64,000 nucleotides of DNA, taken from NCBI GenBank assembly GCA_004022145.1, contig RCNU01000010.1; one strand, given 5' to 3'. Position numbers and translations under genes: made by a program. Below the pieces are notes generated by a model. It was not told the DNA's origin and ran no database searches. It was given only the letters and a program-made list of their open reading frames with translations. Shown here piece by piece: positions 13,471 to 20,023 of this stretch. Source of the stretch: Paecilomyces variotii. Lineage: Eukaryota. Each line of letters begins with the position of its first letter. Within the stretch, counting starts at the first letter, position 1.

Positions 13471-14297
13471 ATATTTCGGGAACGGCACAGCGACATCCCC
13501 TCTTGTTAAAAGCATACACGTTTCTCTGCGTAATTGCAGTTGGGAGGACGAAGCGCGATATCCTTTTTTCTTTTTCCGAGCATGGAGTTTTCGGCTTTCT
13601 AATTGGTTTTAATTGTTTATTCCCCCGACCGTGATGGTCTTTTACTGTCCTTATGATCGTCCATACGACTTATGTCTGTCCTTAATGATTGCATATGATT
13701 CGCGCTGGCTGTCCGCGCCTAGCAGAGCAATAAATAGTTAATACGGCCGATTAATCATGGATTCTCTGTCTTTTGTAGATAACCAGTCCAACAGGGAATG
13801 TCATATTGTATGATTTCGCTACTTTCATGGAGATCAGATCAGATCTGCGTCTACTATCAGTGAGTGAGGAAATGAATGATCTGCACCGTGTTATATACAG
13901 TTGTATGCACCCCAGACTGTTTGGTAATTCTGGATGATTAACTTATTGCTTGCTTCGACACTAACCAACTGAGAAGCGAAGAGAGCGGGCAACCACACCG
14001 TATACCAGCAGCCATACCTCGATAGTCCAAAGAAAAAAAAGAAGGAAAAAAAGCCTCGAGTAATTGAATTAATCACAATCGATATAGAATCCAATTAATG
14101 AACCAAAAATCCTCTGTAGCCTCGATCCAGCTGCGTGGTGCTGGCTCTCCTTCGTCTCCGCTGGAACTTCGCCAAGAGTTCTCACCACACACTGAAATTT
14201 CTCCCCCAACTTTATCGATAGTCTCCAACGCCAAACCTTTCCCTCCACCAACCTATCCCCCCCCAATCCTCCATTCTACCAGTCAAGCCAGCCCAGC

Positions 14298-15763
14298 ATG
14301 CCGGCTCCGACAAACACCCTCCTCATCGAGGGCACTTTCACCGAACTGTGCGAGGAGCTCGCCCAGTACATCGACGTCCTGCGCAAGAACGAGGGGCCCA
14401 GCGTCCACGCCGAAGTCGCCCCGCTGCTCGAGCCTCTGCGCCAGCAAGAACAGAATGAGCAGGAACCCGACCTGAAGCAGCGGGATGAAGTTCTTAAGAA
14501 GATCGTGTCTGCTGCGGCCGTTTTGAACTCGGCGCCTGAGAACGGTGGGTGGGAGTCTTTTGCCCGGTTGAACGCGTTGATATGATTTTTTTGAAGGAAG
14601 ATGAGAGGCTTACAATATGGACCAAAAAAAAAACAGAGATCATCTCCGCCTACAACCTCCTCGTTCACCTGTCTCACCAGGCTGAGAAGCCGGATATGTT
14701 CCTTTCTCGCATCTGCACCTATCTCGCCAAGCCCATCGCCTCGTCTCCGCAGCAGGGCCCGTCGATAGCCCTGTCCATCCTCTGCACCATCTTCAACACC
14801 CTCGCGCCCAACGACTCCAGCCGCTACCACGTCTTCCTGGCCATTGTCGCCGTCATCAGACAGTCCGGATCGTCGTACGCCTTCGAGGCTTTCAAGCCGC
14901 AGCTGACCGCCCAGCTGCCCGGATGGATCGCCGCGTGGGAGTTGGATGAGGAGGATGCGCAGAAGGTGCATCTGGCTGTGGCCGACGCTGCCACCGCTGC
15001 CGGTGATAATGAACTCGCCTACACCCACCTGGTGCAGGCTCTCCAGACGATCCCGGCCAATGAGGCCTCCAGCAAGGAGTCTCGCGATCTGGCTATCCGC
15101 GCCCTGACGGCGGCTTTCTCGAACCCGGCCATCTTCGACTTCACCCCCTTGTCCGCTTCCGATGCGGTCCAGGCTCTGCGGGCCAGCGATACCTCTCTCT
15201 TCGAGCTCCTCGAGATCTTCGCGGCGGACACGCTGGATGCCTACGAAGACTTCGTTGCCTCGACCCCTCTGTCCTCCATTTCCGGTGGCGTCCTGGCCGA
15301 CGCTGGAGAGACGCTGCAGAACAAGATGCGTCTGCTCACCCTTGCTTCTCTGGCTGCCTCGACCCCCTCTCGCTCCCTGCCATACTCCACGATCGCCTCT
15401 TCCCTCCGTGTGCCCGCCGAGGACGTTGAGAAGTGGGTTATCGACACGATCCGTGCCGGTCTCGTGGAGGGCAGGCTGTCGCAGCTGCGGTCCGAGTTCC
15501 TGGTCCACCGGGCCACCTACCGTGTGTTCGGTGAGAAGCAGTGGGCGGAGGTCCAGGGCCGTCTGATGGTCTGGCGCCGCAGCCTCGAGAGCGTTCTGGG
15601 CGTCATCCGCTCGGAGCGGGAGCGTTTCGTGCGCGAGGGCATGCAGGCTGCTGCGGAGGAAGCCAAGTCCAACGAGAAGGGTGGAAGGACCATCGAGCGA
15701 CGACGGAATCAGCAGCAGCAGCAGCAACCTCGGGAGGTGGAAGTGGCTGGCGGTGCTGAGTAG
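14298..15763 (+). CDS. eIF3m: Eukaryotic translation initiation factor 3 subunit M (PCI domain); intron 14545-14636
   Basis: N-terminus MPAPTNTLLIEGTFTELCEELAQYID; PCI region KMRLLTLASLAA..VEKWVIDTIRAGLVEGRLSQ..ATYRVFGEKQW. Confidence 0.92.
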
Positions 15764-16429
15764 ATATACCCCTCCTCGCAATATCGTCGAAGCTAAACAT
15801 GAGGGGGGGTGAAATCCACCTCAAGTCATATCCTTTTTTTTCACTCTTCCGCCGCCGCCATCTATTTACCTTTTTTTTATGTCATTCTTCTCATGTTGCT
15901 TAGATAGGGAGCCCTCTGTATGCATGATGCTTTTTCTTTTTTTTACTTTTTAACTTAACGGATCGGGACAGTTCGTTTCATCGTTCCATTCGATCATCGT
16001 CAAATCGGATAATGAGTCACGTTGTTTAAAACAAAAACGGGTCCTTTTTCTTTTCTCTTACACTTGCTGGTGAAGAATAAAATGGGAGATGGAGGACAAA
16101 GCAGAATTCAGGTTAGGGAGCAGGAAGGCCGATGACATACGAGACCACTGTGTTAGGTCGAATAGGTTCTTATTCGAGAAACTAGAGGGGGAAATAAGAA
16201 AAGAAAATGGAACGAACAATTGAACTGTGATTACGAATGCCCTTCATCATATCCACGACCAATTCAATGCTTGGAATTGGGCTTGTTCTATATCTATCCT
16301 GTAGGACGCATCCGCTGGATGAAGTATTTAATCCAATCGTAGGGACCAAAACGGGGTGGTTTTGTAAACCAAAAAGAAAAAAAAAATAAGTCAACAAATA
16401 TTTATATACTTTCTCCTTCAAGATATCCT

Positions 16430-17101
16430 TTACAGCGGGTTGATTCCCTTGGCCTCAATACCCTCCCTGATACGAGCGTATACATCCTCCTTCGTCCCCA
16501 CCGCCTCGATCGCAACCACCTTACCCTGCTTCCTAAACTCATCCACGACCGGCATGCTCGTGTCAATAAAGGTACGGAACCGCTTCTTGATCGATTCGAT
16601 ATTATCATCATCCCGACCGGAAGTCTCCCCGCGCTTCAGCAGACGCGCCTCGAGCACATCCTCCGGACAGCTCAGGAAGAGCGTGAATTTCGACGGCGCA
16701 ACAGTCTCTTCAAAGAAAACCGCCTGGTCAAGCTTGCGCGGAAATCCATCGATCAGGAACCGAGGCTTCGCCGGCTTCTTGGTGTCGGAGTCGACGCCGC
16801 TACGACGTTTGGCCAGCGTGTCAGACATGGCGTTGGACAGCAGCGCAACGGTGATTTCCATCGGCACGATCTTGCCTTCTTTGATGTAGTTCCGAATCAG
16901 GTCGCCGTATTGACTACCCTCGCGGACCTGTTCGGCGCGTAGCAGGTCACCGGCAGATAGGTGCGTGAAGCCATAGTCGCGAACGAGGTTCTCGGATTGC
17001 GTGCCTTTACCGGCACCGGGGCCGCCGAGGACGAAAACGACGTCGACTTCGTCGGGGGCGAAGCGGGGAGTGTTGTTCTTGATGGAGGTTTCGGTGGCCA
17101 T
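16430..17101 (-). CDS. URA6: UMP-CMP (uridylate) kinase
   Basis: P-loop VFVLGGPGAGKGTQ, FTHLSAGDLLRAEQ, FLIDGFPR, SGRDDDNIESIKKRF; intronless 223 aa. Confidence 0.95.
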   Translation of the reverse strand: MATETSIKNNTPRFAPDEVDVVFVLGGPGAGKGTQSENLVRDYGFTHLSAGDLLRAEQVREGSQYGDLIRNYIKEGKIVPMEITVALLSNAMSDTLAKRRSGVDSDTKKPAKPRFLIDGFPRKLDQAVFFEETVAPSKFTLFLSCPEDVLEARLLKRGETSGRDDDNIESIKKRFRTFIDTSMPVVDEFRKQGKVVAIEAVGTKEDVYARIREGIEAKGINPL

Positions 17102-17160
17102 TTTTTATTTTTATTTCTCTCTTAAGGCGTAGGTAGATTGATTTCCTTTCCCCCTTTTTT

Positions 17161-17469
17161 TTACTCTGACTTAACGGCTGGTTTGGCGGTGCGAGATTTG
17201 ACCAGCAGGATATATGCGCCCGTACCAACAGCGAGGAGCACAATGAACGGAACGACCTTGAATTCCGAACGACGGTTCTGCGGAGGCGGAGAAGAAGAGG
17301 TTGAGTAAGGTGTAGTAGTTGTATTCAGACGCTGGTGAAGACGAACGAGTTGTTGTTGTTGTTGGTGGTGGTGGGGCAGCGATGATCGACCGGCGGCGGC
17401 ACGGGATGAGGAAGATAGAGCTCGCAGAGACAGAGAGCTCAATGCTGGACGAGCCAGATGGATGGGCAT
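17161..17469 (-). CDS. Small (102 aa) putative mitochondrial single-pass membrane protein immediately upstream of URA6
   Basis: ATG at 17469; Arg/Ser/Leu/Ala-rich presequence-like N-terminus without acidic residues (MPIHLARPALSSLSLRALSSSSRAAAGRSS..PYSTSS), then one hydrophobic helix VVPFIVLLAVGTGAYILLV and a basic tail. Confidence 0.7.
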   Translation of the reverse strand: MPIHLARPALSSLSLRALSSSSRAAAGRSSLPHHHQQQQQLVRLHQRLNTTTTPYSTSSSPPPQNRRSEFKVVPFIVLLAVGTGAYILLVKSRTAKPAVKSE

Positions 17470-18435
17470 TGGGAGGATAATGGTAGGAGGAGTACAGTAC
17501 AAATGCTCGTTGGGTAAGGATAGGATAGGATAGGAAGTTAGAAGCAGAGAGGAACTCCAGCAGGCGGCCCGGGGGAAAAGGTGCGGTGGCGGAACGCTGG
17601 AATCTTCAACAATTCTCCGCGTGTGGTTAGCGTAGCTATGAGATCCGTTTGATTAGCAGGAGAAGTAGAGTATACTACTATCGATGCATCAATACTTTTG
17701 CATGCTCTAGGAAATGCATTGGTTCTGCATGCTATGGAGGGGATGGAGATGTGCTCCATATTTTGGAGGTCCTGGTGTAAGTATACAAAAGGGGCTCAGT
17801 AATAGATGGGATGCCATCAAATGAGACCTCACACACCAGAACATCTTCCCAGATAGCAGCCTTATACAGATTACAAGAGACATGTTACATTCACTTCAGA
17901 ATGAGAAAGATTTCAATCTCACATAATTAATCATAGGGCATTAATCCACACAAGACGCTGCAGCTACCCTTCACTCATACTTGACATCAGTTACCTCTCC
18001 CTCCAACCTCCCCAGATTTCATTGTGTCTGTCTCTGAATGGAAGATAATAGCCGATCTGAATAGATGAATGAGCATTCACTTGTGACGTGAAGTGCGTCC
18101 ATTTGGCACATCTCTTCTCTGCTGGTACTACTTACCTTCACCCGTCTATTCAGCTCTGTTCTGTTCCTGCCTTTTACAGTCCTAATCTCTTTCTTACTCT
18201 GAACAATCATCCAACTTATTGTTGCTTCAGATATGAGACTTTGAGGATTTCATCTAATCTCACATATTGTACCTCAGCTGGGAACAAAGAACTGAAAGTG
18301 TCGTGGCTGGTGTTAATTCTGAGAAATCAGAGTGGTACACCCCGTTCTTTTTCAAGTCCAAACTCGAATATATCAACTACAACTATCATGTGCAGACCGG
18401 TTGGTACTGTTTGTCCTTCTCTGGACTCAGCTCCG

Positions 18436-20023
18436 ATGGAGCAAAATGATGGCCATACCCGTGGTCGCGGTCGCGGGCGCGGGCGAGGAAGAGGACGAGG
18501 ACGAGGACGAGGACGAGGTCCGCGTGGGAGCCGCGGTCGAGGAGGCAGCAATGGTGGTCAGGAAATAGGAAATTTAACTCAGGTTAGATGATTCCATTGT
18601 CTATCTTATCTGATAGATAAAATACTGATCGATCGTACAGGGTCAAAGTTCTATCAACCCGCAAAACATCCAGAATAGGGACAACCAAAACCACACTGGA
18701 CATCCGAGAGGTACGGATAGAGGAAGAGGCTCGAACAGGGGCAGGGGCAGGGGCCATGGGCGCAGAGGATCTAGAGGAAATCAACAGCAAGTCTCTTCAG
18801 TGGGTCCGTATAGATCTCTGGTCGTCGAAAAGAGACCGGAATCTCAGTCGAATGCGAGCGTTTCTGGTCGACGTGGAAAAGATACCCCTGAAAGAGGGAA
18901 CTGGATGCCACGACGCAATCGTGCATCGAGAGGGAATTCTACGAACAATGATCGCGCAAGGAGATCTTCTCGAGAGAAAGGGAAAGCCCCCGTTAGACAG
19001 CCCGTGGTTGAGAATGGGGGACAAGGAAAGATGCAACACCACGGCACTGCTGTCCCTGCGAAGGAGACTATTACTCCAGTCGCCCTGGACAAGATAGCAG
19101 AGCCATCTGGAATAGTGCCAGATACTCAATTCGACGAAATAGAGCAGGAAAGCACGTGGGAGATGTCTTCTGTCCAGGTTGAGATCGACATTCAGGAACC
19201 AATTGCTCCTGTCACTCAGCAAACCATCAAGGCAGTCAATCAGCCAATCCAGCAGAAGACTCTCTTATTCAGACTGCCCGGGGAACTACGTACAAAGATC
19301 TACGAGTACATATTTGGCACCTATAGAGTCTGCATATATCGCTTCCGGGCGCCAAATACAGGAAGCTCGAAGCGCCAATACCGTCTGCGTCACACCTGTC
19401 TTCCCCCTTACCATCCGACCATCCATGACTTGATCCCAAGGACCAAATCCACTCCGGCGATCCCGAGTGCCTTGGTGTACACATGCAGGGAAATTTATCG
19501 TGAGACAGTCCTGTTCTTGTACTCGAACACGCAGTTTGTGTTCCGCTCCACCAAAGTCATCAACACCTTTTTGAGAAACACGCCCATTGTCGCACAGAAC
19601 GCTATTCGGCACCTAGAGCTCAATTATATCGGATACAACGAGCCACGACTCACCGAGTTCCGCAAGTTCAAAATCCGCAGTGATCTGGCCTGGTATCTAG
19701 CGTGTAGCACCATGGCACAGAACTTTACTTCCTTGCGCGTGCTACACCTGCACATAACTATTTGGGACTGGCCGATGAAACTGGACCTGAAAGAAAGATG
19801 GGCCATCCCGTTGCTTGAATTTGCTAGAAAGGGTGGCCTCGACCATGTAGATGCGAACCTGCGCATGCACATGTTCAACACTGATCAGTTGCAGGAGGCT
19901 GCGCGCAAGCTGGAGAAAGCGCTTATGAATCCAAGGACGTATCAGATCAAAGATGACAGGCGCTTAGCTATGAGACTGCAAGGCCCAATAAGAGCTGGAA
20001 AGGTGCTGAACATTGTTTTCTAG
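18436..20023 (+). CDS. Protein with RG-repeat disordered N-terminus and C-terminal F-box-like/DUF7730-like domain; intron 18583-18640
   Basis: Exon 1 encodes (RG)10. The GTTAGA..CTGAT..TACAG intron joins it in frame to ORF 18800-20023. Motifs LLFRLPGELRTKIYEYIFG and TCREIYRETVLFLYSNTQFVF. Confidence 0.7.

Follow-up and report, generated by a model that had tools for sequence, protein, structure and literature searches.

A candidate bicistronic URA6 locus in Paecilomyces variotii whose small upstream reading frame resembles the first exon of URA6 in other fungi

Two reading frames at the URA6 locus

The window analysed here is a stretch of 64,000 nucleotides (nt) from contig RCNU01000010.1 of the Paecilomyces variotii assembly GCA_004022145.1, and the subject is a pair of open reading frames (ORFs) on its minus strand. 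A small ORF of 102 amino acids (17469-17161) is followed by the ORF of URA6 (17101-16430), and an earlier sequence-only reading had proposed that both proteins are made from one mRNA by leaky scanning. Inspection of the letters and the ORF listing bear out the layout described there, with two ORFs in different frames (offset 2), a gap of 59 nt and a TAA codon in the URA6 frame two codons 5' of the URA6 ATG, to which a second TAA at four codons is to be added. The start codons of the small ORF and of URA6, termed AUG1 and AUG2, have the weak and the strong sequence context, respectively, that had been ascribed to them (Table 1), and AUG1 coincides with the start of the P. variotii protein models P0002-P0006. 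The C+T-rich tract reported upstream of the first ORF is present as well: C+T amounts to 72% over the 131 nt 5' of AUG1 versus 53% over the next 200 nt upstream, and the nearest ATG upstream of AUG1 is 220 nt away. The two AATAAA hexamers that precede AUG2 are the only ones on the minus strand from 17200 to 16300, and the pair could be either an A-rich start context or the poly(A) signal of a short mRNA isoform. Calculated folding of the RNA from 17200 to 17072 gave -10.8 kcal/mol with a z score of +1.38, 189 of 200 shuffled sequences folding at least as well, and no Rfam-type RNA family matched within 15800-18400, spacer included.

The 223-residue ORF matches the Pfam family ADK (PF00406) over profile positions 1-150 of 151, with an E value of 7.4e-41 and 140.2 bits (cut-off 26.8). 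The named protein closest to it is 'uridylate kinase Ura6 [Paecilomyces variotii No. 5]', with 89% identity, and the P-loop residues G26, G27, P28, G29, G31, K32, G33 and T34 are invariant in the 30 sequences of alignment A4. Judged from these matches, the ORF encodes a UMP-CMP kinase of the adenylate kinase family. URA6 is called essential in yeast, and the URA6 leader of Saccharomyces cerevisiae, ~160 nt long, contains four upstream UUG codons, the use of which in an eIF5 fidelity mutant reduces Ura6 protein (PMC8943034). Upstream initiation thus affects URA6 output in yeast as well.

The first 68 residues of the small protein include eight arginine and lysine residues and no aspartate or glutamate, and the hydrophobic helix at residues 72-90 is flanked by Lys71 on one side and by Lys91 and Arg93 on the other. 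The presequence-like N-terminus and single transmembrane (TM) helix of the earlier description are thus both recovered, the hydropathy peak being 2.48. A bipartite mitochondrial signal consists of a presequence plus a stop-transfer helix, as in class 2 dihydroorotate dehydrogenase, and the window protein likewise combines a basic, acid-free N-terminus with one hydrophobic helix between basic residues. Its C-terminus is identical in the models from five other P. variotii strains (P0002-P0006), and two residues of the tail differ in P. lecythidis (P0007). The length of a His/Gln run in the N-terminal part varies among the Paecilomyces models P0001-P0007, with 2-4 His before the Gln run and 4-5 Gln.

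A word-based search with the small protein returned only Paecilomyces 'hypothetical proteins' and one relative of 141 residues. A profile of eight sequences, compared with 1.84 billion representatives, gave 73 matches at E <= 1e-3, mostly proteins of 65-215 residues with the match at their C-terminal end. The named members belong to Thermoascus, Thermomyces, Aspergillus and Penicillium (Eurotiales) and to one species of Chaetothyriales. Alignment A2, made from 43 of the 75 family proteins in hand, the shorter ones being chosen, exhibits a variable basic N-terminus, R-x-Y-S, the sequence RSxFK(I/V)xPF followed by a helix with GSGSY that ends in VLLVKSR, and a short tail. The TM block is the most conserved part of the family, and Eurotiales, Chaetothyriales and further lineages all retain it together with the basic, acid-free N-terminus. 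Residue figures for the family as a whole refer to the 63 proteins with recognisable motif and start, the other 12 of the 75 having been dropped for lacking these. Aspartate and glutamate are absent from the first 30 residues in 54 of the 63, and the parts preceding the TM helix contain 526 Arg plus Lys versus 47 Asp plus Glu in 3685 residues. The motif R-x-[YF]-[SAPQ] also occurs in 54 of the 63 members. The window protein is without it, and the processing-peptidase-type motif R-x-[YF]-[SA] was not found in the window protein either, which has T-P-Y-S at that place.

No Pfam family reached its cut-off in any of the 43 A2 proteins, the window protein included. Cytochrome c oxidase subunit VIIa (PF02238) was considered and rejected, the match being 13.2 bits against a cut-off of 22.1 (E 0.13) and shown by just two of the 43. 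Atlas look-alikes of the small protein are small single-TM mitochondrial subunits, all with scores <0.9 and taken as leads only. The small ORF is accordingly a real coding sequence of an unnamed fungal family, and its product may be a mitochondrial inner-membrane protein.

Table 1 Features of the URA6 locus and its surroundings in the P. variotii window.
Feature	Position	Strand	Evidence or remark
C+T-rich tract, probable 5' RNA boundary	17470..17600	-	Base composition and contig ends
Small ORF, 102 aa	17161..17469	-	ORF listing; presequence-like N-terminus, linker, one TM helix, short basic tail
AUG1, start of small ORF	17467..17469	-	Weak context ctcccaATGcc, C at -3, C at +4
CAC/CAA codon repeat, His/Gln run	17340..17382	-	Skipped as a repeat in the read-contig comparison
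TM helix codons, aa 72-90 (VVPFIVLLAVGTGAYILLV)	17200..17256	-	Best Kyte-Doolittle 19-residue window, 2.48
TAA stop of small ORF	17161..17163	-	ORF listing; X1, X5, X6 and X9 contigs without other letters or indels
A-rich spacer, 59 nt	17102..17160	-	Poorly structured; TAA codons in URA6 frame
Two AATAAA hexamers, starts 17115 and 17109	17104..17115	-	Directly 5' of AUG2
AUG2, start of URA6	17099..17101	-	Strong context taaaaaATGgc, A at -3, G at +4
URA6 (UMP-CMP kinase) ORF, 223 aa, intron-less	16430..17101	-	Pfam ADK; no joints in RNA-like contigs
P-loop GGPGAGKGT, URA6 aa 26-34	17000..17026	-	Alignment A4
eIF3 subunit M gene (eIF3m)	14582..15763	+	PCI domain and eIF3m C-terminal helix (Pfam); upstream exon near 14196-14582
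GR-repeat short ORF	18388..18591	+	Eleven Gly-Arg dipeptides; strand divergent from small ORF; sub-threshold Pfam match only

Fused and split arrangements in other fungi

A 330-residue protein from a Trizodia metagenome-assembled genome (P0053) consists of the small protein fused to URA6. When longer proteins were searched with A2, nine matches of 293-414 residues, all with adenylate-kinase domains, were found among the 8000 candidates scored. Of these nine models (P0080-P0088), eight are named uridylate or UMP-CMP kinase or adenylate-kinase-domain protein, the ninth, P0087, being labelled 'uncharacterized protein'. Their genera are Hyaloscypha, Halenospora, Hyphodiscus, Coleophoma, Phialocephala, Drepanopeziza and Rhynchosporium; taxonomy records place four of the seven in Helotiales, and the remaining three presumably belong there too. 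The junction of the fused models reads ...KSR-x-D-M-A-P..., with the initiator Met of URA6 retained immediately behind the helix. The N-terminal extension of some ascomycete URA6 models, which the sequence-only reading had suggested, therefore exists in nine Helotiales models and the Trizodia model, and it is homologous to the small ORF. The best 120 URA6 relatives listed comprise 115 proteins of 209-276 residues and five of 381-390 residues (46-52% identity). The 115 are without the extension because they are too short to hold it; seven of them were inspected, and five of these, of Onygenales type (258-276 residues), contain internal insertions and lack an extension at the N-terminus.

Consecutive locus tags, 5902 and 5901, have been given to the genes of the small protein and URA6 in Thermoascus crustaceus. 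Metagenome contigs scanned with A2 gave 43 matching stretches, of which 15 encode a relative; L001, L002 and L003 are identical over the locus, as are L005 and L006, leaving 12 distinct loci. A URA6 homologue lies directly downstream on the same strand in every one of the 15 (12 distinct). The adjacency is thus conserved, and both fused and split states occur, the former intron-joined and of Helotiales type, the latter of Eurotiomycete type; these were two of the points on which the earlier proposal had been left to comparison.

Seven loci (L005, L008, L009, L010, L011, L013 and L014), which encode Helotiales-type proteins, form the intron class. All seven have a donor (ctg|GTACGC, ttg|GTATGx, ttg|GTGCGT or ctt|GTACGT) 2-4 codons past KSR, just after the helix, a CTRAC-type branch site ~20 nt before the acceptor, and a YAG acceptor that leaves exactly 2 nt to the URA6 ATG, and the introns are 167-268 nt long. 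The predicted spliced product has the KSR-x-D-M-A-P junction in six of the seven; that of L014 reads ...RSRDGTY-M-T-P....

The split class comprises the window, L001, L004, L007, L012 and L015. The spacers measure 59 nt in the window, 77 nt in L001, 33 nt in L012 and 27 nt in L015, and the value is -17 in L004 and L007, where the small ORF overlaps URA6 out of frame, the URA6 ATG being 17 nt ahead of the small ORF's stop. The split-class spacers do not align, and no conserved element was found in them. In L004 (91-125) and L007 (90-124) both frames are open over ~30 nt, and the URA6 N-terminus resembles that of the Onygenales models. In L012 (190-289) and L015 (3130-3226) the two ORFs are in the same frame, parted by one stop codon (TAG or TGA) and 33 or 27 nt in which no second stop occurs; readthrough of the stop codon would recreate the fused protein, and the chance of such a layout is roughly estimated at ~0.2 per locus.

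No joining intron of the form GTRNGN..YAG is present in the window, and enumeration of all GT..AG pairs there revealed no consensus donor. A stricter intron scan, which recovered the intron in the positive controls L005 and L009, found nothing in the window, L004, L007 and L012. Both results agree with the earlier statement that no branch point or acceptor joins the two ORFs in frame. Joining-intron candidates in L001 and L015 were rejected, as they are branch-less and would delete the helix or most of the ORF.

The ratio of nonsynonymous to synonymous substitution rates (dN/dS) of the peptide is 0.33 between the window and L001 (74 codons), 0.27 between L012 and L015 (69 codons) and 0.53 between L004 and L007 (40 codons), compared with 0.11-0.16 for intron-class pairs. 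In five further split-class pairs the synonymous sites are saturated (proportion of synonymous differences, pS, 0.76-0.87), with 34-64% identical residues over the aligned codons. Because dN/dS is well below 1 and synonymous sites are saturated, the peptide is probably translated and constrained in the split state too; by these ratios it is less tightly constrained there than in the intron class. A lack of conservation of the small ORF, which the sequence-only reading had named as grounds for its own rejection, is not what was seen, given 73 profile matches and purifying selection.

These comparisons indicate that the small ORF is the detached first exon of the URA6 gene of other fungi, a point that had been missed before, and that a part of a gene appears to have changed from a spliced exon to a free-standing cistron. 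If so, there are two states, and for this reason annotations would disagree, giving a 'hypothetical protein' plus Ura6 in Eurotiales and a single 300-residue 'uridylate kinase' in Helotiales.

The other neighbours of the locus were also compared. The eIF3m gene is tail-to-tail with URA6 in all 10 distinct loci that have enough flank (the flank is too short in L011 and L012), and the upstream neighbour of the window locus is common to L001 only.

Start codons, RNA-like contigs and possible modes of expression

Between AUG1 and AUG2 there is no ATG in any frame over 365 nt. The absence itself had been observed correctly in the sequence-only reading; the 5-6 ATG that it gave as the expectation hold for uniform composition, and local composition gives 4.0 in a mononucleotide model (probability of none 0.019) and 2.8 in a first-order Markov model (0.064). 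Shuffling of mononucleotides left 1.5% of 20000 sequences without ATG, and the 368-nt gap is one of six that large or larger among ~2190 ATG-to-ATG gaps in the window. The depletion extends to relatives. The split class has a single ATG in 1522 nt before AUG2 (window 365, L001 455, L015 321, partial L004 108 and partial L012 273 nt), where composition predicts 9.5-14.7 (P 8e-4 to 6e-6); L007, a close relative of L004, was left out of this sum and has no ATG in its 107 nt. Exon 1 of the intron class contains 13 ATG in 1717 nt, a contrast with the split class at P 0.002. A shared Met column in the helix accounts for seven of these 13 and for the sole split-class ATG, and without this column the counts are 0 versus 6 (P 0.022).

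The start contexts differ in a similar manner. Position -3 of AUG1 is a pyrimidine in all three split loci that have it on the contig versus a purine in six of seven intron loci (Fisher P 0.033), and AUG2 has A at -3 in 6/6 split loci. A local baseline from the first ATGs of 19 long ORFs of the window, with a purine at -3 in 11 of 19, was discarded as too noisy, many of these ATGs probably being false starts. For the proteins, the classes were assigned by a sequence proxy, K(I/V)(L/V)PF for the Eurotiomycete type (n=32) and KIWPF for the Helotiales type (n=31). Internal Met residues number 4 in 2665 residues of the Eurotiomycete type versus 35 in 2532 of the Helotiales type (Fisher P ~1e-7), and ATG-compatible dipeptides per 100 residues amount to 1.58 and 3.91, respectively (Fisher P ~1e-7), with 5.30 in URA6 proteins. 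The signature of a weak AUG1 and few ATGs is thus real and specific to the class, and of moderate weight.

Twenty of 24 public sequencing runs listed contain the stretch or part of it, and the contigs of four runs from four studies (X1, X5, X6 and X9) were compared with the locus; that X5, X6 and X9 are of RNA is a guess. Each of these three runs has one contig that includes both ORFs and is free of differing letters, gaps and joints, covering 15921-17494 in X5, ending at 17484 in X6 and covering 16405-17514 (1110 nt) in X9. The X1 contig is uninformative on transcripts because it spans the whole 2.7-kb stretch, intergenic DNA included. The contigs of X6, X5 and X9, from three studies, stop at 17484, 17494 and 17514, that is 15-45 nt before AUG1, with no loose end, and X1 continues; these ends, together with the lack of X5, X6 and X9 cover at 17520-18250, are a weak hint of a 5' RNA boundary. 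No spliced form across the two ORFs was seen in the contigs of the four runs, and at the stop and spacer X5, X6 and X9 show no difference in any letter. Two outcomes that had been named as fatal to the bicistronic proposal, spliced reads that fuse the ORFs and a homopolymer error whose correction restores one ORF, are thus respectively not seen in the four runs and excluded.

Some details of these contigs concern the surroundings of the locus. The X5 contig extends from URA6 to 15921, and the 3' ends of URA6 and eIF3m may overlap. X1 has one extra A behind 16376, in a T/A homopolymer of the URA6 3' region, that no other run shows. On the other side, a low-depth contig of X5 begins at 18287, next to the GR-repeat ORF.

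One bicistronic mRNA read by leaky scanning is, on balance and by somewhat better than even judgement, the best explanation of the locus. The locus would represent one transcription unit of a layout long established in Pezizomycotina, with a coding segment for a mitochondrial-type signal and anchor placed ahead of URA6. In Helotiales this segment would be exon 1, and splicing would yield a URA6 of ~300 residues with an N-terminal anchor. Paecilomyces and the Eurotiomycete-type loci are without the intron signals, and the segment ends at its own stop, here 59 nt before URA6. An unspliced mRNA from ~17514-17484 (15-45 nt before AUG1) to beyond 16405 would carry both ORFs. Some 40S subunits would initiate at AUG1, with its weak context and short leader, and give the 102-residue membrane protein, and others would cross 365 ATG-free, weakly structured nucleotides to AUG2 with its strong context and give the URA6 enzyme. 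The single mRNA, the leaky scanning and the inner-membrane location of the small protein are all inferred. Of the original claim of one mRNA for two proteins, the comparative data and the bridging contigs are in favour; the contigs are not of single molecules, and the ATG statistic and the adjacency are weak supports.

Several points weigh against this reading. Contigs cannot prove that one molecule holds both ORFs, as overlapping transcripts assemble alike. Adjacency alone may be plain microsynteny because the eIF3m neighbour is equally conserved. When synonymous codons are resampled, the out-of-frame ATG expected number 0.00 in the window ORF and 1.60 in the pooled split loci, where 1 is observed; the lack of ATG therefore reflects residue composition, with no Met and no ATG-compatible dipeptides, and there is no sign in this resampling, for the window ORF or the pooled split loci, of selection on codon choice against ATG. 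The N-terminal part appears to be Met-poor in both classes. Few independent events would lie behind the class difference, since most of it sits in one or two TM columns (+5 and +7), and the small P values overstate independence because the representatives are related. The proxy of W versus non-W is imperfect, L015 being split yet KIWPF and keeping one in-frame ATG. Exon 1 of the intron class has 1-4 ATGs, so that this class must make any short URA6 by another route, which could be ancestral and retained here. The AATAAA pair before AUG2 and C+T-rich stretches inside the small ORF fit a short mRNA and an internal URA6 start. Finally, the available text of a long-read study reports 0 polycistronic transcripts in the ascomycete Neurospora crassa (PMC4503453).

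Several of these points also speak for two overlapping monocistronic mRNAs, a possible arrangement that is nevertheless less likely than a bicistronic message. The mRNA of the small ORF would receive its poly(A) tail close to the 5' end of URA6 or slightly within it, the URA6 start site would lie within the small ORF, and assembly would merge the two. This arrangement is consistent with contigs that lack single-molecule resolution, with the AATAAA signals at 17115 and 17109, with the C+T-rich stretches, with a lack of ATG that residue composition can account for, and with the result reported in the available text on N. crassa (PMC4503453). The ATGs in exon 1 and in some introns of the intron class point in the same direction, as an internal start site may be needed there for a short URA6. 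However, overlapping mRNAs do not predict that a weak AUG1 is restricted to the split class (3/3 versus 1/7), nor that the split class is lower in Met and in ATG-compatible dipeptides. The URA6 ATG inside the small ORF of L004 and L007, and spacers that range from -17 to +77 nt, also count against them, as does, weakly, the fact that the X5, X6 and X9 contigs neither break nor show loose ends between the two ORFs.

A second alternative retains the single mRNA and takes the small ORF as a relic or a regulatory upstream ORF that throttles URA6, a detached exon whose peptide has no function of its own. Its homology to exon 1 of the Helotiales URA6 gene would agree with a relic, as would the looser constraint in the split class (dN/dS 0.27-0.53 versus 0.11-0.16) and the absence from the window protein of R-x-[YF]-[SAPQ], a motif that most members (54 of 63) possess. 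Throttling has a parallel in yeast, where upstream starts in the URA6 leader reduce URA6 output, according to the available text of PMC8943034. The alternative is nonetheless improbable: dN/dS is still well below 1 with synonymous sites saturated, the TM block and the acid-free basic N-terminus are kept across Eurotiales, Chaetothyriales and further lineages, and a mere throttle needs no 100-codon ORF with a conserved membrane helix.

Production of URA6 from the bicistronic mRNA by termination and reinitiation, or by internal entry at the A-rich spacer, is very unlikely. The short, A-rich spacer, and the spacers of only 33 and 27 nt in L012 and L015, would suit it. A length of ~100 codons, that of the first ORF, is unfavourable for reinitiation, and in L004 and L007 AUG2 lies 17 nt upstream of the stop of that ORF. 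The spacers cannot be aligned and have no common element, a stable structure is lacking, and neither mechanism requires the avoidance of ATG or a weak AUG1. That the two Paecilomyces ORFs are really one, by splicing, frameshifting, readthrough or assembly error, is scarcely credible in spite of the fused models of other fungi and a poor GTTAAG (17175) to AAG (17078) pair that would preserve the frame, given no joint in four runs, identical letters across stop and spacer in X5, X6 and X9, no consensus donor, the two TAA codons before AUG2 in the URA6 frame, the identical small-protein C-terminus in five other P. variotii strain models, and the 115 of the best 120 listed URA6 relatives that are too short for the extension.

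The preference for one mRNA read by leaky scanning, with adjacency discounted, rests on three features, namely joining by an intron, overlap of the ORFs and the signature at the start codons. A further extension is speculative and doubtful. The URA6 of early Pezizomycotina might have been tethered to mitochondria, its kinase facing the intermembrane space beside dihydroorotate dehydrogenase, and Eurotiomycetes might have detached the anchor while keeping it on the same mRNA, where leaky scanning would set the ratio of anchor to kinase. The free anchor would keep a mitochondrial role, perhaps as a trans-acting tether of URA6 or of a different pyrimidine enzyme at the inner membrane.

Significance and comparison with known systems

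If the bicistronic reading is true, a conserved natural bicistron on a central gene of nucleotide metabolism is common to Aspergillus, Penicillium, Paecilomyces and their relatives, in a fungal group in which two-protein mRNAs are thought to be rare or absent, and the locus would offer a genetically tractable fungal test bed for leaky scanning. The evolutionary twist is that a spliced exon in Helotiales would correspond to a separate cistron in the Eurotiomycete-type loci. An unstudied link between UMP/CMP kinase and mitochondria is indicated as well, with a hint of former tethering. A literature search, which covered articles without their supplementary files, found no paper on the small ORF or on a mitochondrial extension of fungal URA6.

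Close counterparts are the URA6 models of Helotiales and Trizodia (P0080-P0088 and P0053), which have a homologous extension in the same order and on the same strand, with the URA6 Met at the junction. In the Helotiales loci a canonical intron removes the stop, whereas the window is without such an intron. Class 2 dihydroorotate dehydrogenase has no sequence relation to the small protein; its bipartite signal is similar in that a basic, acid-free N-terminus is followed by one hydrophobic helix. In the fused state, such a signal would keep an enzyme of the pyrimidine pathway at the inner membrane.

In Agaricomycetes, polycistronic transcripts span at least two conserved neighbouring genes (Gordon et al. 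2015, PMC4503453). They resemble the arrangement proposed here as fungal mRNAs over conserved neighbours, and differ in that, as far as the available text of that study goes, they are basidiomycete, enriched in tandem duplicates and of unknown translation. The human MOCS1 locus produces either a bicistronic mRNA or a spliced two-domain fusion (Mayr et al. 2018, 10.1101/429183), and it shares with the fungal loci the alternative between a bicistronic state and fusion by splicing, with mitochondrial targeting involved. Both MOCS1 forms occur in one organism by alternative splicing, whereas among the fungi each class shows one of the two states. Translation of the bicistronic MOCS1 form is reported to be limited to its first ORF, whereas URA6, the second ORF, is presumably needed here and must be translated.

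In the nuclear bicistronic loci of green algae, mutational analysis has connected a weak start of the first ORF and a scarcity of AUGs with leaky scanning (Duenas et al. 2025, PMC11892635). In the parts of that report available, these loci form a genome-wide class in another kingdom, whereas the present case is one locus known from sequence and contigs, and here, unlike there, the first ORF is homologous to an exon of the second ORF's gene in other lineages. The resemblance is otherwise extensive: a small first ORF with a weak start, few or no AUGs before the second ORF, and conservation of both. For the algal loci, it has been proposed that output can be tuned through the start strength of the first ORF.

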